Below, piece by piece: positions 13,193 to 60,419 of a stretch of DNA of 64,000 bases (its first letter is position 1; the number at the start of each line of letters is the position of its first letter). Origin of the DNA: a virus; IMG/VR virus record IMGVR_UViG_3300025840_003125; one strand, given 5' to 3'. The translations under genes were made by a program, and so were the position numbers. Below the pieces are notes generated by a model. It made no database searches, had not been told where the DNA came from, and saw nothing but the letters and a program-made list of their open reading frames with translations.

Positions 13193-13837
13193 ATGAAGTT
13201 AATTACCGAAGAAATATCAAACGCAGAATATATCGTAGAAGAAAAAAATGGTAAAAGAAATTATTCCATTAAAGGTATATTCATGCAATCAGACGTTAAG
13301 AATAGGAATGGAAGAATCTATCCTAAAGAAATCTTACAAAAAGAAGTTGTAAGATACAATAGAGAGTTCATCAATAAAAGCAGAGCATTCGGCGAACTTG
13401 GTCATCCTGATGGCCCGACAGTAAATTTAGAAAGAGTTTCGCATATGATTAAGGCTTTGTATCCAGAAGGCGCAAATTTTATAGGTGAAGCACGAGTTTT
13501 AGATACCCCATATGGAAAAATAGTGAAAAGTTTAATTGACGAGGGTGCAAAATTAGGTGTTTCAAGTAGAGGAATGGGTACACTTGCAAATGTAGGTGGT
13601 GCCAATGTAGTTAAAGACGATTTTTACCTTGCGACCGCGGCTGATATAGTCGCAGACCCAAGTGCTCCAGACGCTTTCGTAGAAGGCATTATGGAAGGCA
13701 AAGAGTGGGTTTGGAATAATGGGATTTTGAAAGAGCAAGAAGTAAACGAATTAAAGTTACAAGTAGAAAGTAAAGAGAGAATGGCAAGAGCAGAAAAGAA
13801 TGCTCAAGTATTCGAATCTTTTCTTAAAAAACTGTAA
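13193..13837 (+). CDS. gp21: Prohead protease gp21
   Basis: NRNGRIY, GELGHP, GVSSRGMG, DIVADPSAPDAFV motifs. Confidence 0.96.
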   Translation: MKLITEEISNAEYIVEEKNGKRNYSIKGIFMQSDVKNRNGRIYPKEILQKEVVRYNREFINKSRAFGELGHPDGPTVNLERVSHMIKALYPEGANFIGEARVLDTPYGKIVKSLIDEGAKLGVSSRGMGTLANVGGANVVKDDFYLATAADIVADPSAPDAFVEGIMEGKEWVWNNGILKEQEVNELKLQVESKERMARAEKNAQVFESFLKKL

Positions 13838-36190: not shown

Positions 36191-36266
36191 GCCGCTTTAG
36201 CTCAGTTGGTAGAGCAACTGATTTGTAATCAGTAGGTCCGCGGTTCAAATCCGTGAAGCGGCACCA
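36191..36266 (+). tRNA. tRNA-Thr (anticodon TGT)
   Basis: Cloverleaf: acceptor GCCGCTT/AAGCGGC, D arm GCTCAGTTGGTAGAGC, anticodon arm ACTGA-TTTGTAA-TCAGT, T loop GGTTCAAATCC, encoded CCA. Confidence 0.95.
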
Positions 36267-44239: not shown

Positions 44240-44780
44240 TTACATATGTACATATAAAAATGTACTTAAAAAGGATCAATGTCAACACCTTATAGATAAG
44301 TTTGAAGATTCGCAACATCAACAATCCAAAACAAATTTAAAAGGTCATATGTCATTTACAGAAATTAATCTTAACATGTTTTCAGACTGGAAAGAGTATT
44401 CAGATTTAATCTTTCCTAAATTAAGACAGGTTGTTGACAAATATGTAAAAGATGTTAATATAGACTCATTAAAACAATGGCCAGAAAAGTTTGGCTTTGA
44501 ACAGATAAGATTTAAGAAGTATGAACCTAACAATGAAGATGAATTCCAAACACATGTAGATGTGACTAACTATAATAGTGCTAGAAGATTTTTAGTTTTT
44601 TTTATGTATTTAAATAACAATGATGGCGGCGAAACAACATTTCCTGATTATGATATATCAGTTAAACCAGAGGCAGGTAAGGTGCTCGTATTCCCACCAT
44701 TGTGGACATTTAGACACGCAGGACAGAAACCAATCAATCAACCAAAGTATATTATAGGGAGTTATCTACATTATGTTTGA
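44214..44780 (+). CDS. 2OG-Fe(II) oxygenase (prolyl-4-hydroxylase-like)
   Basis: HVD, FMYLN, GGETTF, FPP.W...HAG, KY motifs. Confidence 0.88.
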   Translation: MVKLSFKSDYICTYKNVLKKDQCQHLIDKFEDSQHQQSKTNLKGHMSFTEINLNMFSDWKEYSDLIFPKLRQVVDKYVKDVNIDSLKQWPEKFGFEQIRFKKYEPNNEDEFQTHVDVTNYNSARRFLVFFMYLNNNDGGETTFPDYDISVKPEAGKVLVFPPLWTFRHAGQKPINQPKYIIGSYLHYV

Positions 44781-47683: not shown

Positions 47684-47765
47684 TATAAATAGTCTAGTAA
47701 GTAGTGATTTATTAATGGGATATAGTGATTTTTCGCTTGACAAAGGCGTAATTTTTTGATATAAT
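47684..47765 (+). promoter_or_regulatory. Tandem late (TATAAATA 47684-47691) and sigma70 (47737-47765) promoters
   Basis: TATAAATA; TTGACA-N17-TATAAT. Confidence 0.8.
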
Positions 47766-47783: not shown

Positions 47784-49007
47784 ATGTATAGTTTTAAACA
47801 ATATCTTAATGAGGCAAAAAATACTCATTTAGAACATTTAGAAGACGAAATTATTAATAACGGTTACCAAGGTGGCCTTAACGCAGTAGAATTTCTTAAA
47901 TCATTAAGAAATATGCTAGTAGGTTCATCACGTAGAAAATTAAACGTATCCGTTAAATGGGATGGTGCACCAGCAGTATTCTGTGGTATCAATCCTGAAA
48001 ACGGCAAATTCTTTGTTGGATCAAAATCAGTATTCAACGTAACTCCTAAAATCAATTACACACAAGCAGATATAAGAAGAAATCACTCTGGTGGTTTAGT
48101 AGATAAATTATCAATCTGTTTAAAAGAATTACCTAAACTTGGTATACGAGGTGTTGTACAAGGTGACTTGTTATTTACATCAGGAGATATTAAGTCGGTA
48201 TCTATACGAGGTGAAGATGCTATCGCATTTACACCAAACACTATAACATATGCTGTTCCAGAAAATACTGACCTTGCTAAAAGAATTAAAAGAGCTAAGT
48301 TAGGCATTATCTTTCACACTACTTACAATGGCCGAAAGATGTCTAACCTAAAAGCAAGCTTTGGCGTCAATGTAAATCGTTTTACAAAGACGCCAGCAGT
48401 ATTCTTTGATGACGCAAGTTACAAAGACTCATCTGGTGTTGCTACATTTACAACTGCTGAAAGTGATCAGTACGATAATATGTTAAGAATGGCAATGGGA
48501 TCAATTTCAAAAGGTAAAGTTATTTTAGATTTGTTAAAAAGACAAACAAATATGTTATCAGTTGGTGCAAGATTAAAGATTTTCTTCAATACAAAAATAA
48601 GAGAAGGTCAAACTATTAGTAATGTAAAAGGATTACAATCAGATTTTAGAAAGTACTATGCTTCAGTTTTAGATGATGAGATGTCAAGTAAAAAAACAGA
48701 AGCTGCAAAAAGTAAATACAAAACAATAAGAGATGATGGTTTAAAATTTATTGATAGATATGATAATGAAATATATTTTGCAATTGCAAGTTATGTAACT
48801 TTACAAAAAGTTAAAAATTATCTTGTAAGTAAAATGAATCAAATTAAATCAATAGGAACTTTTTTACAAAAAGGTAATGGATTTGAAGTAACAAATCCAG
48901 AAGGTTATGTTGCTGTAGATAGAATGGGCAACGCCGTTAAATTAGTAGATAGATTAGAGTTTAGTACAGCAAACTTTACATTAGCAAAGAATTGGATTAA
49001 AGGATAA
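47784..49007 (+). CDS. Ligase-like covalent nucleotidyltransferase (DUF6267-like) with N-terminal capsid-targeting-like sequence
   Basis: KWDG (motif I KxDG), QGDLLF, EGYVAV (motif IV), VKLV (motif V); starts MYSFKQYLNE. Confidence 0.65.
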   Translation: MYSFKQYLNEAKNTHLEHLEDEIINNGYQGGLNAVEFLKSLRNMLVGSSRRKLNVSVKWDGAPAVFCGINPENGKFFVGSKSVFNVTPKINYTQADIRRNHSGGLVDKLSICLKELPKLGIRGVVQGDLLFTSGDIKSVSIRGEDAIAFTPNTITYAVPENTDLAKRIKRAKLGIIFHTTYNGRKMSNLKASFGVNVNRFTKTPAVFFDDASYKDSSGVATFTTAESDQYDNMLRMAMGSISKGKVILDLLKRQTNMLSVGARLKIFFNTKIREGQTISNVKGLQSDFRKYYASVLDDEMSSKKTEAAKSKYKTIRDDGLKFIDRYDNEIYFAIASYVTLQKVKNYLVSKMNQIKSIGTFLQKGNGFEVTNPEGYVAVDRMGNAVKLVDRLEFSTANFTLAKNWIKG

Positions 49008-50362
49008 TGGCAAATTTTAGAAAAGACACACAAGAATTTGGACCTAGAGGCCACGATAAAACGGTCTTTGAAGTACCAATGATAGCAACAAATGACGGTA
49101 ATGTTGTAACACAAACAAATCCATTTCCTGTTACAATATCAAGTATCAGTCAATCAAGCTCAGCAGAAACTAATACAGACGCTTTTGGTAGACAAAGAAT
49201 ATCATCACCACTAACACTATTTGATTCCTCACATAGATTTTCTGATAATGATTTATGGAATGAAGATATTACAGGTGACGCTTCATCAACCTTTCAAATA
49301 AATGAGGGTCTAGTAGATTTAACAGTTGGCGATAATGCTAATGATGAAATTATTAGAGAAACAAAAAAAGTAATGACTTATCAACCTGGTAAATCATTGT
49401 TAATTTTAAATTCTTTTGTATTTAATGCTGCTAAAACTGGATTAAGACAAAGAATAGGATATTTTGGAACAGACAATGGTATCTATTTAGAACAAGATGG
49501 TACAGATGTTTATATAGTAGAAAGAAGTAAAGTATCAGGTTCAGTTGTAGAAAGTAAAATTGCTCAAGCAGATTGGAATGTAGATAAATTAGATGGCACA
49601 GGTACAACAGGCTATACTTTAGATTTAACAAAAGCACAAATTCAATATATAGATTTAGAATGGTTAGGTATAGGAACCGTAAGAGTAGGTTTTGTTATTA
49701 ATGGTAGATTTGTAGTTGCTCACGCTTTTCATCACGCAAATTTAGTAACAGGAACATATATTACTACAGCTTCTTTACCTTTAAGAATAGAAATTAAACA
49801 ACAGACAGAATTGGGTGACAGCACCACAGCAACACTAAAACAAGTTTGTTCTAGTGTTATGAGTGAAGGTGGTTATCAATTAAGAGGTTTACAACAAGCA
49901 GTTGGTACAGTAATTACTTCTCCTTATGAATTAACTACTGCTGGTACTTTTTATCCTGTTGTTTCTATACGATTAAAGTCAACAAGATTAGACGCAGCTG
50001 CTATTCTTACTGCTTTATCTATTTTAGGAACAGGAAATGGTATTTTTTATAATTGGCAAGTCGCAGCTGGAGGAACAGTTACAACAAGTTGGACTTCAGC
50101 TGGCACTAATTCATCTGTTGAATATTCAATTTCAGGAACAGCTTATACACTAGGTACAGGTAGAATATTAGCTAGTGGTTTTATGGCTTCTAATAATCAA
50201 TCTAGTGCAGCTACTAATATTCTTAAAGAAGCGTTATTTAAATTTCAATTAGAAAGAAATACATTTACGGGTGTAGCAGAACCTATAACTCTTTTAATGT
50301 CTAGTGGTACTGATACGCAAGATGTGTATGCTTCTATGGATTGGGAAGAAATTAGTAGATAA
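49007..50362 (+). CDS. Hypothetical beta-rich, probably virion structural protein
   Basis: DAFGRQRIS, YQPGKS, Q.DWNVDKLDG, EWLGIG pattern; Thr/Ser/Gly-rich. Confidence 0.6.
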   Translation: MANFRKDTQEFGPRGHDKTVFEVPMIATNDGNVVTQTNPFPVTISSISQSSSAETNTDAFGRQRISSPLTLFDSSHRFSDNDLWNEDITGDASSTFQINEGLVDLTVGDNANDEIIRETKKVMTYQPGKSLLILNSFVFNAAKTGLRQRIGYFGTDNGIYLEQDGTDVYIVERSKVSGSVVESKIAQADWNVDKLDGTGTTGYTLDLTKAQIQYIDLEWLGIGTVRVGFVINGRFVVAHAFHHANLVTGTYITTASLPLRIEIKQQTELGDSTTATLKQVCSSVMSEGGYQLRGLQQAVGTVITSPYELTTAGTFYPVVSIRLKSTRLDAAAILTALSILGTGNGIFYNWQVAAGGTVTTSWTSAGTNSSVEYSISGTAYTLGTGRILASGFMASNNQSSAATNILKEALFKFQLERNTFTGVAEPITLLMSSGTDTQDVYASMDWEEISR

Positions 50363-50949
50363 TGAAAAGTTTTAGAGATTTTATATTTGAACAATTAGGT
50401 AGAATGAGAATTATTATGTTAGGTGGACCTGGTTCAGGTAAATCAACCTATACAGAATACTTAATTAAACACTTTGATATTACACATATCTATCCAGGCG
50501 GTATGTTAAGAAAAGAAATTGAAAAAGGTTCAGAAATAGGACAGATTGCAAAAGATATAGTATCAAAAGGTGAGTTTGTTCCTAATCAAATAGTATTAGA
50601 TTTAATTAGTAAAAAAGTTGAAGAAAGTCCTAAAGGTTATGTACTTGATGGATGGCCAAGATATATGCAACAAGTTGAAGATATGGAAAAAGCAGAAATA
50701 GGTTATGACTATGCAGTATTTTTAGATGTAAGTACCGAAGAAGTAATGAGAAGATTACTTGCAAGAGGTAGAGCAGATGATACGAAAGAGATTATAGGTA
50801 ATAGAATAGAATTATATAAAAAAGAAACAGGTCCTGTAATAGAATATTTAAGAAAGAAACCAGGATTTTTAGAAATAAAAGCAGAGGGTGGTACACCTGA
50901 AGATACTGCTAACGAAATTATAAGAAGAATAGAAAATGAAAGTAAATAG
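50362..50949 (+). CDS. adk: Adenylate kinase-like NMP kinase
   Basis: GGPGSGKST, GMLRKE, G.FVP, LDGWPR, RGRADD motifs; starts MKSFRDFIFE. Confidence 0.88.
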   Translation: MKSFRDFIFEQLGRMRIIMLGGPGSGKSTYTEYLIKHFDITHIYPGGMLRKEIEKGSEIGQIAKDIVSKGEFVPNQIVLDLISKKVEESPKGYVLDGWPRYMQQVEDMEKAEIGYDYAVFLDVSTEEVMRRLLARGRADDTKEIIGNRIELYKKETGPVIEYLRKKPGFLEIKAEGGTPEDTANEIIRRIENESK

Positions 50950-51625
50950 TTTTATACAACATTTAGCAGAGGGTGTTTACGACCCAGGAATATTTAAAGC
51001 ATTTTTTCTTGCTGGTGGTCCTGGTTCAGGTAAAACATTTGTTACTCAAAGTACATTTTCAGGTACAGGATTAAAAGTTGTAAATTCTGATACATCATTT
51101 GAAAGAAATTTAAAACAAGCAAACTTATCTTTAAGTATGCCAGATGAAGAAACATATTTTAGAAACATTTTACGAAATGCAGCCAAAAGAACTGCTATCT
51201 CACAGTTAAATAAATATGTAGAAGGAAGACTTGGTTTAGTAGTTGATAGCACAGGAAGAGATTATGATATGATTGCCAGACAACACAGTATGCTAAAGCA
51301 AATGGGTTATGATTGTTATATGGTATTTGTAAATACAACGTTAGATGTAGCGTTAGCAAGAAACGCTAGACGTGAAAGAACTATTCCTGAATATATTACA
51401 AAGTCAAGTTGGGAAGGTGTGCAAAATAACATTGGTAAATTTCAAAGACTATTTGGTTTAAATAATTTTTTAGTTGTAGATAACAATAAGTCTGATTTAG
51501 AACTTGTTACACTCACAATGAATAGAGTTGGTAAAATGGTAAGAAGATTTATGAGAACACCTGTACAAAATTATATTGCAAAACAATGGATGAAAAAAGA
51601 ATTAGAGGCACGTAAAAGAATATGA
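50936..51625 (+). CDS. P-loop kinase (zeta-toxin/AAA_33-like)
   Basis: FLAGGPGSGKT, VNSD, VVDSTG, ALARNARRER; starts MKVNSFIQHLAE. Confidence 0.75.
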   Translation: MKVNSFIQHLAEGVYDPGIFKAFFLAGGPGSGKTFVTQSTFSGTGLKVVNSDTSFERNLKQANLSLSMPDEETYFRNILRNAAKRTAISQLNKYVEGRLGLVVDSTGRDYDMIARQHSMLKQMGYDCYMVFVNTTLDVALARNARRERTIPEYITKSSWEGVQNNIGKFQRLFGLNNFLVVDNNKSDLELVTLTMNRVGKMVRRFMRTPVQNYIAKQWMKKELEARKRI

Positions 51626-54411
51626 GATTTAAAGATTTTTTAAAAGAGTCTATAATTGACATACCAAGACAAACGTATGCAAAAGGTGTATTTGATAAAG
51701 CAGATACTCCTAATCCAGTATTAAAACCATCAGTAAAAAAATTAGTATTAGATGGTATAAAGACATTTGAGAAATTTGGTAAAGTAGTTAAGTATACCTT
51801 AATTGGTTCAATACTTACAAAACAATATAGAGCTGATGCAGACCTTGACATTAATATCTTATTTAATATACCTGGTTCAAAAGAAGAACAAGAAAAGGTA
51901 CATGATGAGATTAGAGAATATCAAGGACAGATAAATGGTAAAAATATACCAGGCACACAGCATCCTATCAACTACTTTTCCATCATAGATCCTGTAACAT
52001 TTAATAAGGCAAGGGACATGGCTGATGGTACTTTTGATATCGACTCTAACAAGTGGATCAAAAAACCAGAACCTGGCACCTTTGAACCTGAAAAATACGT
52101 TACGGATTTTCAGAAGCGTGTTTCTGAAATAGATGTTGTTAAAGGTGAACTTATACGAGATATGATTGATTATGAGGAACTAAAAGACTTAACAGGTAAC
52201 GACATAAAAAACTTGTCAAGTTTAGTTTCTAAAAAGTTAGACGAAATTAAATCTTCTATTAACACTCTAATTGATATTGGTGACAAAACTATTGCAGACC
52301 GAAAGGATGCTTTTAGTACAGATATGTCACCAGACGAAATCAGAAAGTTTGGTGTAAAGAACCGACTTCCCAAAAATGTGATTTATAAAATGTTAGAAAA
52401 GTATCATTATCTCAAATTTTTCAAAAAGTTGAAAGAGATTATGGAAGACGGTAAAATATCACCAGACGAACTGAAATCATTATCAAAAATAAAAGAGGCC
52501 AAGGGTAGATCAATTGCATTTACCTTTGGCCGATTTAATCCACCTACAATAGGACACGAAAAACTTATTAACAAAGTGGCACAACAAAGAACAGATGATT
52601 ACAGAATTTATTTAAGTAAATCTGAAGACACATCTAAAAACCCATTGAATGCTAGAGTTAAGTTAGCAACAATGAAACAAATGTTTCCTAGACATAGCAG
52701 AAACATACTACTTAATCCATCAAACATGATATTGGATATTGTAACTGATTTACATAAAAGAGGTTACTCAAACATAACGATGGTTGCAGGTAGTGATAGA
52801 GTAAGAGAATTTGATACTATCTTAAAAAAATATAACGGCGTTAAGAGCCGTCATGGTCTATATGACTTTGATAGTATATCTGTAGCTTCAGCAGGAGAAA
52901 GAGATCCTGACGCTGAAGGTGCTACGGGAATGAGTGCTAGTAAAATGAGAGCGGCTGCAAAATCAAAAGACTTTGCAAGTTTCAAAAAAGGACTGCCGTC
53001 TGGTTTTGCTAACTCAAAAAATGCACAAGACTTATTTAGAAATGTAAGAAAAGGAATGATGTTAGCGGCTTCGTTTGACGCTGATAGTGCATTTAGATTT
53101 AAACCATTTATAACTGCCTCAACAAAAGAGGAGTTAGATAAAATGACATTAAGGGACAAATATATTTCAGAGCATTTATATGATGTAGGAGATATAGTTG
53201 ACGATATGGAGAATAATGTAACTGGTGTCATTGTAAGAAGAGGAACAAACTATGTTACCTTGGAAGACGAGGAGATGAGCCTACACAAATGTTGGTTATA
53301 TAATATTATGGAAACTCCTGTCTATTCAATTAAGTTGGAGAAACGATCAATGAACTTAAAAGAGAAAAGAAAATTAGCGTATGATAAAGAAACAGATCAA
53401 CCTAAAAAATACGTTGCAGGATTATCAGACAAAGAGAAAAAGGCACATGATAGACACCTAGAAAAACAAGGTAAAAAATCAGATAGTGACAAGTCTGCTT
53501 ATAAACAATCACCTGCTGACAAAGTAGCAAAAACAAAACCTAGTAAACATACAAAACGTTTCAAACAAATGTATGGAGAATTGAAGACAAAATCAGAAAA
53601 AGAACCTCAACATAGAGGTAATGAATTTAATACAGATGGTATACCAGAAGCCTATGAAATAGGACATGATTGGGCAAAATATACATCTTCAATAACACCA
53701 GGCGAAAAACACTACAATCCTAAGTATCAAGGCGGTTCTTATAGTCCAAGTAAACATAGTGATAATTTAATTAATGTTAACGCAAGTAAGGATATAAGCA
53801 TGACAGATAATAAAAAAGTTGAGCTAAAAGATATAGAAGAATGGGCAAGTAAAGAAGAAACTATTAATAAATATAAGGAAAGATATGGGGAAGAGTGGCA
53901 ATCTAAAATTGAAGAAACATACAATAAAATGTTCAATAAAGTGATTGACACCAACACAAATATGCAAGAAGGAAGAATGAAGGATATCGCAATAGACCTT
54001 AAATCTAAGGACGAAGGCGGATTAGATCCAGAGGAATTTCAAAGAAAGTACAACAAATCTAAAGCAGAAATGAGAAAAGATTTAGGTGCTACTGAAGGCT
54101 TTAAGTTAACGTTTAAAGACTTTATGAAAGAAGAAGCAGACGAGTGGGGAATTTTCCCATCACAAATTACAGAAGCAGAACATCAAGGTAAAAAAGTTAC
54201 TTTGAACAAACCTGTTAGAGGTGGTTCTAAAAAGTTTTATGTTTACACAAAAGGACCTAACGACAACATAGTCAAAGTATCATTTGGTGATCCTAATATG
54301 GAAATTAAAAGAGATAATCCTGCAAGAAGAAGAAGCTTCAGAGCAAGACATAACTGTGATAATCCAGGACCTAAATGGAAAGCAAGATATTGGAGTTGCA
54401 AAAAATGGTAA
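51622..54411 (+). CDS. Multidomain protein: Pol-beta-family nucleotidyltransferase, HxGH cytidylyltransferase-like domain and several small basic modules
   Basis: LIGS.....Y..DADLD; FTFGRFNPPTIGH, AGSDR, SASKMR; C-terminal SFRARHNC..ARYWSC module; starts MRFKDFLKE. Confidence 0.8.
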   Translation: MRFKDFLKESIIDIPRQTYAKGVFDKADTPNPVLKPSVKKLVLDGIKTFEKFGKVVKYTLIGSILTKQYRADADLDINILFNIPGSKEEQEKVHDEIREYQGQINGKNIPGTQHPINYFSIIDPVTFNKARDMADGTFDIDSNKWIKKPEPGTFEPEKYVTDFQKRVSEIDVVKGELIRDMIDYEELKDLTGNDIKNLSSLVSKKLDEIKSSINTLIDIGDKTIADRKDAFSTDMSPDEIRKFGVKNRLPKNVIYKMLEKYHYLKFFKKLKEIMEDGKISPDELKSLSKIKEAKGRSIAFTFGRFNPPTIGHEKLINKVAQQRTDDYRIYLSKSEDTSKNPLNARVKLATMKQMFPRHSRNILLNPSNMILDIVTDLHKRGYSNITMVAGSDRVREFDTILKKYNGVKSRHGLYDFDSISVASAGERDPDAEGATGMSASKMRAAAKSKDFASFKKGLPSGFANSKNAQDLFRNVRKGMMLAASFDADSAFRFKPFITASTKEELDKMTLRDKYISEHLYDVGDIVDDMENNVTGVIVRRGTNYVTLEDEEMSLHKCWLYNIMETPVYSIKLEKRSMNLKEKRKLAYDKETDQPKKYVAGLSDKEKKAHDRHLEKQGKKSDSDKSAYKQSPADKVAKTKPSKHTKRFKQMYGELKTKSEKEPQHRGNEFNTDGIPEAYEIGHDWAKYTSSITPGEKHYNPKYQGGSYSPSKHSDNLINVNASKDISMTDNKKVELKDIEEWASKEETINKYKERYGEEWQSKIEETYNKMFNKVIDTNTNMQEGRMKDIAIDLKSKDEGGLDPEEFQRKYNKSKAEMRKDLGATEGFKLTFKDFMKEEADEWGIFPSQITEAEHQGKKVTLNKPVRGGSKKFYVYTKGPNDNIVKVSFGDPNMEIKRDNPARRRSFRARHNCDNPGPKWKARYWSCKKW

Positions 54412-55358
54412 CAAGATATAGAAGTGGATGGGATTACGAATCTCTAAATGAGTTTACAACTGTTTACGTTGCTAGATGGAGAGGTAAAGACGGTAAAAGA
54501 TATGCGTCACCTTTTAAAACAAAAGACTCTGCTGAAAAGAGAGCAAAAGAATTAAGAACACAAGGTAATTCTGAAGTATCCGTTACACAAGATACGTTAA
54601 AGGGAAATATTAAGTGGGCAAAAGATAACGGACCTGATATAAAAGGAATGCAAAAAGAAGAAAAGTTTGAGTGTCCTAAATGTAAAGGTAAAGGTTGTGA
54701 CCATTGTGGTGGCAAAGGTTATCATATGAAAGAAAATGTTGGTGATTTTTATCAAAGTAAAATGACACCTCAACAAATTCAGAATATAAAGAAGACTTGG
54801 CAAGGTAAGAAAGCTTCAGACGTTACACCTGCTGTTAAGGCAATGATTAAACGATTAGATATACCTACACAGTTGGCAATTAGACAGGCAAACATACCTC
54901 ATATTTCAAAATTAGTAGAGGACGCTTCTAAAGACGCTGAGAATATGGCGAAATTGAGAACACGTCAAATGTCATTACAAACTAAATTAAAAGATTTAGA
55001 TCCAGGTGAACCTAAAGACAAAACACCTATGGCTATAACTAAAAATGATATAGAGACCATACAAATGAAAATGGATCAGTTAAGAAGTAAAATGAAAAAA
55101 GAACAAGTACACCCAGCAAAATCTCTTATTGAAGCGATTACTGCTGTAAAAAACAAAGCAGAAAAAACAGGTATGCCTTATTCTATCTTAAAGAAAGTTT
55201 ACGATAGAGGTATGGCTGCATGGAAAGGTGGTCATAGACCAGGCACTACACCTCAACAATGGGCTATGGCAAGAGTTAACAGTTTCGTAACTAAATCATC
55301 TGGTACTTGGGGTAAAGCAGATAAAGATTTAGCAGCGAAAGTAAGGAGCAAAAAGTAA
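54405..55358 (+). CDS. Modular hypothetical protein with DnaJ-type zinc-finger fragment (ORF track start 54375; ATG 54405 more likely)
   Basis: CPKCKGKGCDHCGGKG; C-terminal VYDRGMAAWKGGHRPG..QQWAMARVNSF module. Confidence 0.65.
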   Translation: MVTRYRSGWDYESLNEFTTVYVARWRGKDGKRYASPFKTKDSAEKRAKELRTQGNSEVSVTQDTLKGNIKWAKDNGPDIKGMQKEEKFECPKCKGKGCDHCGGKGYHMKENVGDFYQSKMTPQQIQNIKKTWQGKKASDVTPAVKAMIKRLDIPTQLAIRQANIPHISKLVEDASKDAENMAKLRTRQMSLQTKLKDLDPGEPKDKTPMAITKNDIETIQMKMDQLRSKMKKEQVHPAKSLIEAITAVKNKAEKTGMPYSILKKVYDRGMAAWKGGHRPGTTPQQWAMARVNSFVTKSSGTWGKADKDLAAKVRSKK

Positions 55359-56554: not shown

Positions 56555-56562
56555 TATAAATA
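56555..56562 (+). promoter_or_regulatory. T4-type late promoter
   Basis: TATAAATA upstream of 56602. Confidence 0.8.
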
Positions 56563-58061: not shown

Positions 58062-58225
58062 AAGAAGATAGGGATAGCTTTATAGAGGATCTTGCTGACA
58101 ATACACCAAATGAAGCTCAGTTTGATAAGTTAAAAGAAGCTGAAGTACATGACGCTGAAGAAGACCTGGTAGCAGGTAAAACTTATAAGAAATTAAAAGA
58201 CGAAGTAAAACGAGGAGAAAAATGA
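58058..58225 (+). CDS. Small acidic hypothetical protein (55 aa)
   Basis: ATGA overlaps at both ends; MKEDRDSFIEDLADN...; not in ORF track. Confidence 0.6.
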   Translation: MKEDRDSFIEDLADNTPNEAQFDKLKEAEVHDAEEDLVAGKTYKKLKDEVKRGEK

Positions 58226-58653
58226 AAACATTTAAACAACACATAAAAGAAGGCGGAACTATGGGCGTTGGAACACCTCATCAATCTTCAGTAGAAGATG
58301 GATCAATGGGTGCTCACAATATACATGAACCTGCAATCTTACAAAGAGTGAATGCTTTTGTTGGATCTATTGCTGATAAAGAGTATATACAGCCTGAGGC
58401 TGCTCTATCTCAATTAGAAACTAGATTAAGAACAATTGGTGTTCAGTTAAAAGACTCAATAACAATTAATGATAAAAAAGGTAACTTTGAAAGTGCTTTA
58501 GTATTTAATGGTGGTCGTTTTGGTAAAGATACCGACGGCTCTGACATAAATGATGATGGAATTAGTCATAAAGTTGGCAAAGAGTTAAAACTAAAAGGTA
58601 GATACGAAACACTAGAGAACGGCGCTGTTAAAGTTTATGCAGAGCTTGGCTAA
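58222..58653 (+). CDS. Hypothetical protein with capsid-targeting-like N-terminus
   Basis: Starts MKTFKQHIKE; GAGGAG RBS. Confidence 0.65.
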   Translation: MKTFKQHIKEGGTMGVGTPHQSSVEDGSMGAHNIHEPAILQRVNAFVGSIADKEYIQPEAALSQLETRLRTIGVQLKDSITINDKKGNFESALVFNGGRFGKDTDGSDINDDGISHKVGKELKLKGRYETLENGAVKVYAELG

Positions 58654-59015
58654 TGTTTGATAAGATAACAAAGAAGAATTGGTTATTTTACGCCATAAAA
58701 AACTACAATGTTCCTAATTTAGATAGTGAACAGGAGTTTTATGAAGATGTGAAAAGATTTAAGTATCTTAAACGTTTATTTCGTAAATACAAAACCACAG
58801 GTGAACTGAAAACTAGATTAGTATTAAATCATATCATAGTATTGACAAATGTTTTTGGTAATGAGGCTGCGGCTACATTATTATTATTTAAGATTGAAAG
58901 AGAGTATTGGTCTGTACTAAAAACTTTCTTACAATATTTAAATGTAGTAAGTGAAGACGAGTTGCCAAATGTGAAAGTAAATAAAACTTTGTTATCAAGT
59001 TTGGAGAAATTATAA
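58653..59015 (+). CDS. Conserved T4-like phage hypothetical protein
   Basis: EFYEDVKRFKYLKRL, RLVLNHII.L.NVFG pattern. Confidence 0.7.
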   Translation: MFDKITKKNWLFYAIKNYNVPNLDSEQEFYEDVKRFKYLKRLFRKYKTTGELKTRLVLNHIIVLTNVFGNEAAATLLLFKIEREYWSVLKTFLQYLNVVSEDELPNVKVNKTLLSSLEKL

Positions 59016-59605
59016 TGGGAAGAGCAATAGATTTATTAATAACTTATAGAGTAATTAAAATGTTAGTTACTCCTTGGAAACAACATGACGCTTATAAGTT
59101 GGGTATAATTGATGACAATGGTAAAGTATTAAGAAAAGCTAAAACTTTGAAATCAGCAAAAGAAAAAGATTCTTATACTATACTACACAGATTTGTATTC
59201 AATTTGAAAAGACTACTAGGGTTATTACCTGGTGGTAAATCAAAGTTTGCCTCATACGCAACTGCTTTGGCACTATTGTTAAAAGAGAATAAAGATATTA
59301 ACGCTGTAGAATTAGAAAGAGGTTTATATAAACATCTTATTGAAAACGACTTGGTCGCTTATGATGATGATCTAAAAGAGTCTGTAGGTTTTGATTTTTT
59401 ACCAGAAGGTAGATTTATAATGATTGACAGATTAGAAGATTTAAATGGCGAACAAACTGCTGATGTAGGTGATGTAGTATATACAACTGAAAATCAGAAA
59501 CCTTTTGATAATCTATTCGGCGTAAACCTATATCATGTTATAAATGAAGATACTAAAAAACAAATTATAGTATCAGAGGACAACATAGAGAGGGTAAAAT
59601 TTTAA
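59015..59605 (+). CDS. Conserved T4-like phage hypothetical protein
   Basis: AYKLGIIDDNG, YT..HR.VFNLKR, SYA.AL.LLKE pattern. Confidence 0.7.
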   Translation: MGRAIDLLITYRVIKMLVTPWKQHDAYKLGIIDDNGKVLRKAKTLKSAKEKDSYTILHRFVFNLKRLLGLLPGGKSKFASYATALALLLKENKDINAVELERGLYKHLIENDLVAYDDDLKESVGFDFLPEGRFIMIDRLEDLNGEQTADVGDVVYTTENQKPFDNLFGVNLYHVINEDTKKQIIVSEDNIERVKF

Positions 59606-60207
59606 TGAAAACCTTTAAAGAAATAAGATCAATTATAAGAGAATTTTCTGATAGTCAAATAGACATGTTGGCAAGACAATATGCAGGACTAAAAGATAAA
59701 ACAATCTCAACAGATCAAGCAAATAAATTAAGAAAAATATTTGACAGAATACCTGATAGAGCGCTAGACGCTTTAAGAAGAAAAAAGATACCTTTTATAT
59801 CTGGTATGGCATTATCACGTATGGTTAAAAAAGGTATGCCTGTAAAAGAAGACGCACCTGCTAATGCAGTAGGCAATGGATCAAATCTTGCAATGCCGCC
59901 AGCAGTAGAACCTGGTGTACACGTAAAGAAAAAGAAAAAAGATGTAACTAGCTTATTAAGACGTGAAGACTATGATAAAGTTGAACTAGAAAATTTAATT
60001 AATAAGATTGAGTCTAACCAAGACATAGAAGAAAATCAAATTAAACCTATAGTAAACAATATCAAATCAAAAAAAGAAAAAGGTACATATACTGAAGAAT
60101 TTGCTATGACAGCATTTAGATATGTTGTAGATAGACAAATAAAATCTACAGTTTCAGAGGATTTTAGAAACAAAGTTGCTTCAAAATTACTATCAAAGTA
60201 CGTATGA
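59605..60207 (+). CDS. Hypothetical protein with capsid-targeting-like N-terminus
   Basis: Starts MKTFKEIRSIIRE; internal VKE|DAPAN. Confidence 0.65.
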   Translation: MKTFKEIRSIIREFSDSQIDMLARQYAGLKDKTISTDQANKLRKIFDRIPDRALDALRRKKIPFISGMALSRMVKKGMPVKEDAPANAVGNGSNLAMPPAVEPGVHVKKKKKDVTSLLRREDYDKVELENLINKIESNQDIEENQIKPIVNNIKSKKEKGTYTEEFAMTAFRYVVDRQIKSTVSEDFRNKVASKLLSKYV

Positions 60208-60419
60208 AAACTTATAAAGAATTAAGAGAGTATATGAGAGGGTTCGCTATAGGACCTGTTGACACATTAAAACCTATGGCATCCTTAGGCGGTTCTCAAT
60301 CTTCTCCAGATAGAAGATACACAGCACAATTGCCTCAATTAGCTGCAACAGCAAAAGGGCCAGGGTTAGGAACAATTAAACCTATGGTCACAGCAAGTAA
60401 AAAGAAAGAGAAGAAATAA
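60204..60419 (+). CDS. Small hypothetical protein with capsid-targeting-like N-terminus
   Basis: Starts MKTYKELRE; ATGA overlap. Confidence 0.6.
   Translation: MKTYKELREYMRGFAIGPVDTLKPMASLGGSQSSPDRRYTAQLPQLAATAKGPGLGTIKPMVTASKKKEKK

Follow-up and report, generated by a model that had tools for sequence, protein, structure and literature searches.

Why a single phage gene should join two unrelated nucleotidyltransferases to a string of small modules is the question raised by one open reading frame in IMG/VR virus record IMGVR_UViG_3300025840_003125. The stretch analysed here (the window, 64,000 nucleotides) covers the final 64 kb of a contig of 165,693 bp from a Kyanoviridae-type marine T4-like phage, and the reading frame, for an apparently modular cargo protein of 929 residues, occupies 51622..54411 on the plus strand. 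The original prediction, made from the letters alone, took it for a string of cargo modules that the prohead protease sets free at hydrophobic-x-Glu sites. The reading frame is real; of the 8,000 scored, 4,624 are homologs of comparable length. In the interpretation reached here, the gene is probably a self-resolving fusion of head-cargo genes, whose product would be packed into the head, cut by the gp21 protease and delivered together with the DNA. Since the joints of the protein match the rule of the head protease, it is probably packed into the capsid and cut.

The modules, all on the plus strand, begin with a leader of capsid-targeting type (residues 1-9; 51622..51648), with a predicted cut between E9 and S10 that is marked by the conservation of both residues and by a PAP2 insertion in relatives. 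A Pol-beta-superfamily nucleotidyltransferase follows (residues 10-292; 51649..52497), composed of an MNT-like head and a helical bundle and ending at a predicted cut between E292 and A293. Next comes an HxGH (HIGH-superfamily) nucleotidyltransferase of the Kyanoviridae 'cytidyltransferase' family (residues 293-487; 52498..53082) and then, with no Glu site parting the two, a KOW/SH3-like beta domain (about 488-581; 53083..53364). The latter matches phrog_4808 and the tail of phrog_395 and has modelled beta strands; we take it to be KOW-like from the strand pattern. The remainder consists of the basic N-terminal half of DUF5824 (582-676; 53365..53649), which ends between E676 and A677 and has an uncertain site at its upstream boundary; two small unnamed acidic modules (677-783; 53650..53970) ending between E783 and G784; a small mobile helical module (784-829; 53971..54108) that lies inside a different gene in relatives; an internal relic capsid-targeting leader (830-851; 54109..54174) that ends between E851 and A852 and also starts free genes; and a basic, DUF5754-like module of 78 residues (phrog_7595; 54175..54408). 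The two nucleotidyltransferases are unrelated (hhalign probability 0.3%), in line with the two different folds originally proposed, whereas the description "small basic modules" fits only two (pI 9.7 and, for the last, 10.4), the others being acidic. Two features had been missed: the origin of the joints in retained leaders of fused neighbours, and the unjointed KOW/SH3-like domain. The C-terminal half of DUF5824 is held by the next gene (54405-55358, probable start 54405), and the two halves are united within one protein in Pelagibacter phage HTVC008M and Methylophilales phage Melnitz.

The hydrophobic-x-Glu motif occurs 18 times in the protein, so the bare motif proves nothing and was rejected as evidence. 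Five motifs are followed by Ala, Gly or Ser, namely those at E9, E292, E676, E783 and E851. T4 gp21 cleaves after L/I-X-E, as first observed at a Glu-Ala bond (PMC9026906), and the motifs of this extended form in the phage's own gp22 (ten) and gp23 (one, at E52) agree with the T4 rule. All five extended sites lie at most three residues from a module boundary, which none of 20,000 shuffles achieved; the boundaries were taken from natural breakpoints but drawn with the motif in view, which makes this figure optimistic and the result supportive only. The expected coincidence holds in one direction, as every extended site is at a boundary but several boundaries have no site. Four of the five sites fall in segments of the full-length model with a predicted local distance difference test (pLDDT) value below 50, and most other hydrophobic-x-Glu sites lie inside predicted helices or strands. 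The NLKE site (E581) is not supported as a cut site, because Lys follows a Glu conserved in only 56% of 111 related genes; E564 is 85% conserved, but it ends a KOW strand and is followed by Thr.

Across these 111 genes, for which counts are not independent events as the genes are related, E9 and S10 are unchanged in all members while their codons are mixed (for S10, AGT in 51 and TCN in about 60). The Glu is kept in 99% at E676, 95% at E292 (the KIKE-Ala joint of the original prediction), 88% at E783 and 83% at E851. Constant residues with mixed codons indicate that selection acts on the protein. No DNA-level recombination word was seen at the joints, where codons vary freely. Furthermore, the proposed second, internal targeting-like peptide is located at residues 830-838 (nucleotides 54109-54135) and is one of just three such matches found internally when about 52,000 genomic codons were scanned.

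Natural breakpoints in relatives bear directly on the joints. In relatives of 96% identity, a 205-residue PAP2 domain sits between leader and Pol-beta module and re-enters via Glu-Ser, and in others an adenylate kinase or an AAA_33 kinase occupies the same slot with the same joint. Fusions of adenylate kinase with AAA_33 retain the complete downstream leader, and the HxGH protein of Melnitz starts with its own leader, whose Glu-Ala end matches the E292 position. Inserts of 60-110 residues occur between the Pol-beta and HxGH modules, and a 49-residue insert at 675 duplicates the Glu-Ser site. Of 27 non-redundant contexts immediately upstream of the module at residue 677, 26 end in Glu and one in Asp, and the module at 784 has Glu directly upstream in all four distinct contexts, one of them in a different gene; neither shows a sign of a full leader, yet a Glu precedes both even where the surrounding sequence is unrelated. 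HTVC008M and many relatives encode the C-terminal module separately, as a gene with its own leader, and its fused versions keep that leader internally. The comparison of module order thus shows, at the level of gene sequences, that the joints derive from the retained leaders, or Glu-small ends, of formerly separate neighbouring genes, and that adjacent cargo genes fuse, split and reorder among relatives, with modules gained, lost and split at predicted sites. In two related loci (L043:4199-6673 and L073:5992-8445) the C-terminal module is lost and a leader-like stub still ends the protein, which suggests that leaders in internal or C-terminal positions may increase the valency of core binding.

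In the Pol-beta module, LIGS corresponds to residues 60-63 and DADLD to 72-76 (about nucleotides 51799-51849). The Pfam NTP_transf_2/Polbeta match (residues 46-106) is below cut-off, and the proposed fold was confirmed by an AlphaFold2 model (125 sequences) with a pLDDT of 95 from the first mature residues. A profile search returned 917 clusters at 50% identity (E<=0.001). Among homologs aligned at the N-terminus (50%-identity clusters), 123 of 129 begin directly after Glu, and hydrophobic-x-Glu precedes 110 of the 129; among these are 20 of the 22 copies that lie internally behind unrelated sequence. This start after Glu holds behind leaders and at residue 1632 of a protein of 3,974 residues (P0262). 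The latter and P0200, P0258, P0261 and P0268 are very long proteins with the module between Glu joints, some of which carry weak ART/Tpt1-like domains. One homolog (P0203) seems to lack a leader and to begin at the mature N-terminus, but it comes from a 942-nucleotide contig with an overlapping frame and was not used. The module adjoins HxGH in almost all close relatives; of 115 full-length divergent homologs, only 7 carry an HxGH fusion and 52 occur on their own. Three stand-alone loci lie in large phages with no DUF6267 cluster nearby, one of them adjoining its own prohead protease gene, and the module was found in none of the cultured phages searched. It looks, from these comparisons, like an unnamed phage transferase family that is apparently addressed to the capsid.

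Structurally, the Pol-beta head aligns to 2rff (Z 7.1, root-mean-square deviation (rmsd) 3.5, 101 residues aligned) and also to MNT 8xeo (Z 6.6) and CdnG (Z 6.5). The helical bundle has no specific structural match, with close folds only in uncharacterised viral proteins. The top Foldseek match of the module is LinB, which is non-significant (whole-domain TM-score about 0.27), and a wide VIA-align search gave generic helical bundles, including Not5/CNOT3, that were not taken as homology. The MntA model is weakly matched by 57 of 125 members (best E 5e-5); identity with this antitoxin (type VII toxin-antitoxin) was rejected on account of the 283-residue length, the module's own helical bundle, the weak profile matches and the lack of a HEPN toxin neighbour in the window or at three distant loci. 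CD-NTases and CCA enzymes match at head level only, with no full-length match among those listed and none at E<0.001; CCA-type matches are weak and found for only 2 of 125 members, and no RlaP family is among the Pfam matches listed. Conservation is high at G62 (116/116), D74 (113/116) and D76 (115/116) and extends in the bundle to D171, D183, R227, P250, N252, K256, Y261 and Y263. A homodimer model scored 0.75 against 0.00 for the best control, with runs agreeing in at least 84% of contacts and pLDDT of at least 87; as a rough guide for this case, a score at that mark was obtained for 20 of 30 true homodimers and for 1 of 23 single chains. The modelled interface involves mature residues 5-9 and 61-62 and the bundle. 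Head, bundle and predicted dimer together recall KNTase/LinB. Among the three activities first offered for this domain, transfer of a nucleoside monophosphate (NMP) to a protein or small molecule fits best, and CCA-type tRNA tailing and a CD-NTase are left without specific support.

The HxGH domain (297-482) was likewise corroborated, by Pfam CTP_transf_like (22 bits against a cut-off of 21) and by phrog_395 (1.8e-71), a 'cytidyltransferase' family of 557 phage records. HxGH and a C-terminal SxSxxR are present on a Rossmann-like fold, and the catalytic motifs are invariant. The label "NMNAT/PPAT-like" stands at fold level and cannot be narrowed, as the structure scores are tied among PPAT (Z 13.5, rmsd 2.8, 154 aligned), NadM (Z 13.0) and archaeal NMNAT (Z 12.3), and the curated NMNAT (NadM/NadR/NadD) and PPAT families give 13-18 bits against cut-offs of 103-341. 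Two HxGH homologs whose leaders end in Glu-Ala, S-CREM2 gp154 and S-SZBM1_140, have been detected in purified virions, with three (PMC10665884) and two peptides (PMC9146016), and an NMNAT-like protein of S-SCSM1 was likewise in virions (PMC9602691); leaders go unmentioned in the available text of these papers.

The window contains the T4-type head genes gp21, gp22 and gp23, with gp41 at 44773. The putative cutter, a gp21-type head maturation protease, is encoded at 13193..13837 on the plus strand (phrog_207, 1.6e-79). The cultured phages closest at the 929-residue gene are Melnitz and HTVC008M. The gene sits in a tightly packed operon headed by a T4-type late promoter recognised by sequence match (TATAAATA; 47684..47691, plus strand) and a consensus sigma-70 promoter (TTGACA-17-TATAAT; 47737..47765, plus strand). 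This combination of a late with a perfect sigma-70 promoter is common among relatives in both parts: of 65 distinct related regions preceding the DUF6267 gene, 58 contain a late-promoter-like octamer and 45 a sigma-70-like site. Genome-wide, six N-termini are capsid-targeting-like, with a leader of about ten residues closing on L/I-x-E, every one inside the cargo cluster.

Within the operon, the constant partner of the HxGH family is a leader-bearing DUF6267 protein (47784..49007, plus strand), which accompanies it in all 75 loci with enough flank and in HTVC008M, Melnitz, Syn9 and S-PM2; in phrog_455 and S-PM2 the two are fused. Its invariant residues (KWDG, QGD, EGxV and a late Lys) follow the order of the motifs of ligases and capping enzymes (covalent nucleotidyltransferases). 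DUF6267 has no match in the PDB, ligases included, sequence searches of the PDB with HxGH, Pol-beta and DUF6267 gave weak or no matches, and a literature search found no paper mentioning DUF6267. Leader-bearing genes for an adenylate kinase and an AAA_33/zeta-like kinase (50362..51625, plus strand) precede the 929-residue gene, and each kinase is joined to the Pol-beta module via Glu-Ser in some relatives. A 451-residue 'virion structural protein' without a leader (49007-50362, phrog_1645) breaks up the operon and occurs in only 10 of 75 related loci. More small leader-bearing genes (at 58222, 59605 and 60204; region 58222-60419) lie downstream of a late promoter at 56555. In one related phage (L080:2776-4696), two small TusE/DsrC-like reading frames are inserted in the cargo operon, together with a 430-residue frame that by eye resembles a fragment of a dissimilatory sulfite reductase subunit. 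An Rfam scan over the cargo operon gave no match; a tRNA-Thr(TGT) gene lies at 36191-36266 of the window.

By the biology of T4, the leader or leaders would recruit the protein to the prohead core, where gp21 would cut after E9, E292, E676, E783 and E851. This would release the Pol-beta enzyme as a 32.5-kDa product, an HxGH-KOW unit to which the DUF5824 half may or may not remain attached, and several small modules (7-12 kDa); the enzymes, if nothing else, would travel into the host along with the DNA. Fusions of any kind would be resolved by the protease, so that shifting gene boundaries carry little cost, and the two nucleotidyltransferases are best seen as co-cargo. The Pol-beta module may be a dimeric NMP transferase of MNT/KNTase type that modifies a host protein within the first minutes after infection begins, a role parallel to that of the ADP-ribosylating Alt of T4; this is a tentative suggestion, put at somewhat less than an even chance. 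For the acceptor, a host protein leads at that same level, RNA comes well behind, other acceptors rank a little below RNA, and a signal nucleotide is the least likely. With slightly less assurance again, the HxGH unit may adenylylate a small phospho-metabolite such as NMN/NaMN, alongside co-packaged kinases, and the basic modules might act as T4 IPII/IPIII do and bind the DNA inside the head. The Pol-beta fold begins exactly at the predicted cut (Ser-hydrophobic-hydrophobic-Asp) with its first strand in the predicted dimer interface, so in-head cleavage could be zymogen activation. The full version of this idea is unlikely: it would give Kyanoviridae-type phages a general cassette of injected enzymes, with a head protease that activates the cargo as well as resolving fusions, and with a new family of NMP transferases that modify the host by non-canonical His/Asn chemistry.

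Several observations weigh against a packed and self-resolving fusion. Cleavage, packaging and ejection, for this or any fused form, are steps that we infer by analogy. The virion papers, with two to three peptides each, leave carry-over open in their available text (PMC10665884, PMC9146016, PMC9602691), and RaK2-type homologs of the HxGH enzyme are leaderless, so packaging is not a precondition for its usefulness. Neither the HxGH/KOW nor the 722/733 boundary has a Glu site, so that the original claim of a hydrophobic-x-Glu before each module survives for the five extended sites and fails there and at NLKE; the claim of a protease-released concatenation is well supported by comparison at four internal or leader joints and is weak at NLKE. 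Position P3 is loose before module 677, no obvious Glu joint is seen immediately ahead of HxGH in the homologs of HTVC008M and S-PM2, and many DUF6267 leaders lack Glu. Part of the reason for the Glu ahead of the Pol-beta module could be structural. The whole module has no Foldseek match at E<0.001, and its third-acid position (N117, assigned by motif) is Asn or Gln in 106 of 116 sequences, beside a conserved His114, so its chemistry may differ.

The alternative that survives best, as a lesser possibility, keeps packaging and cutting and makes the cargo an RNA-repair kit, in which an RlaP/CCA-like Pol-beta enzyme restores broken RNA ends for DUF6267, the kinase and a HAD phosphatase. The presence of DUF6267, with its ligase-order motifs, at all 75 loci accords with this, as do the AAA_33 kinase and HAD nearby, the RlaP nucleotidyltransferases that accompany RNA ligases in jumbo phages (PMC7824862) and two distant Pol-beta homologs fused to weak Tpt1/KptA-like domains. 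However, the three stand-alone Pol-beta homologs examined are away from DUF6267 and kinases, cultured phages have DUF6267 and HxGH without this Pol-beta, and the RlaP, CCA and PDB ligase comparisons above gave little or nothing.

It is less likely that the small modules are disposable prohead-core pieces (gp22/gp67/gp68-like) or are retained in the head, with no enzyme ejected and the enzymes acting late in the producing cell. T4 core proteins are indeed cut into many fragments that are mostly removed (PMC9026906), some modules are acidic, and the operon has a sigma-70 promoter as well. Against this, the catalytic motifs are invariant in both nucleotidyltransferases, their leaders are retained across very distant phages, and HxGH peptides were found in mature virions, as far as the available text of the reports goes (PMC10665884, PMC9146016).

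The joints could, more doubtfully still, be fossil leaders in a protein that is packaged, loses its first nine residues and otherwise stays intact. They demonstrably stem from leaders, the extended motif also occurs in proteins that are not cargo, such as gp41 and gp17, and in the available text on T4, IPIII fusions are processed only at the leader (PMC9026906). Against this, the junction Glu is kept in 83-100% of genes despite synonymous codon turnover while its neighbours vary, the modules at 677 and 784, with no sign of a full leader, still have a Glu ahead of them where the contexts are unrelated, and the joints sit in low-confidence linkers, exposed to a protease of low specificity (PMC9026906). 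A coupled bifunctional enzyme, for example one making and processing a signal nucleotide, is very improbable: the two domains are neighbours in almost all close relatives and CdnG is among the weak fold matches, but the fusion is rare among divergent homologs, none of the 557 cultured-phage records with HxGH has this Pol-beta, and inserts of 60-110 residues separate the two.

T4-like phages that infect SAR11, OM43 and cyanobacteria rank among the ocean's most abundant viruses, and in their virion proteomes the 'cytidyltransferase' recurs unexplained; leaders and joints offer a concrete reason, head cargo. The joints also give exact predicted neo-N-termini, searchable in existing spectra. More generally, the locus shows how phage polyproteins can arise, as leader-bearing neighbours fuse and the maturation protease undoes the fusion. 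A literature search found no paper on this design of prohead protease, polyprotein and injected effector.

Among known systems, MNT/MntA and KNTase/LinB share the minimal Pol-beta head with GS and DxD, and differ from the present module in its Asn/Gln at the third acid beside a conserved His and in its ordered N-terminal strand from the predicted cut. PPAT (CoaD) and NadM-type NMNAT share HxGH and SxSxxR with the second enzyme (Z 12-13.5 over about 150-160 residues) but are only 12-16% identical and differ from it in its KOW-like tail; no Nampt/Adps partner was seen in the operon. Polyvalent proteins (Iyer et al., 2017, PMC5512222) resemble the whole in combining unrelated effector domains with predicted head delivery and proteolytic release. 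They are built on MuF/ArdC-N anchors and an internal metallopeptidase, include minimal Pol-beta nucleotidyltransferases from conjugative elements and are described without gp21/leader joints; Pfam and PHROGs scans of the 929-residue protein found neither such an anchor nor a metallopeptidase hub.

Closer at hand, residues 293-565 belong to the Kyanoviridae 'cytidyltransferase' family (phrog_395/3041; S-PM2 p139, Syn9 gp184, P-SSM2 gp194, HTVC008M gp130), which has the same place downstream of gp41 and members reported in virions. Its name is a database label, with no activity shown in the available text of the cited papers, and unlike the known members the domain here is preceded by a Pol-beta module absent from the cultured phages searched. 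The closest likeness in logic is to T4 IPI-III and Alt (PMC9026906), with a leader of about ten residues that contains aromatics and ends in hydrophobic-x-Glu, a gp21 gene in the genome and, as with Alt, an enzyme as cargo; the 917-cluster Pol-beta family is a candidate counterpart of Alt with a different chemistry. The T4 proteins, which have no sequence homology to this one, are single-unit cargoes trimmed at their ends (PMC9026906), whereas the present protein strings several cargoes together and has internal joints, retained internal leaders and an order that varies among relatives.

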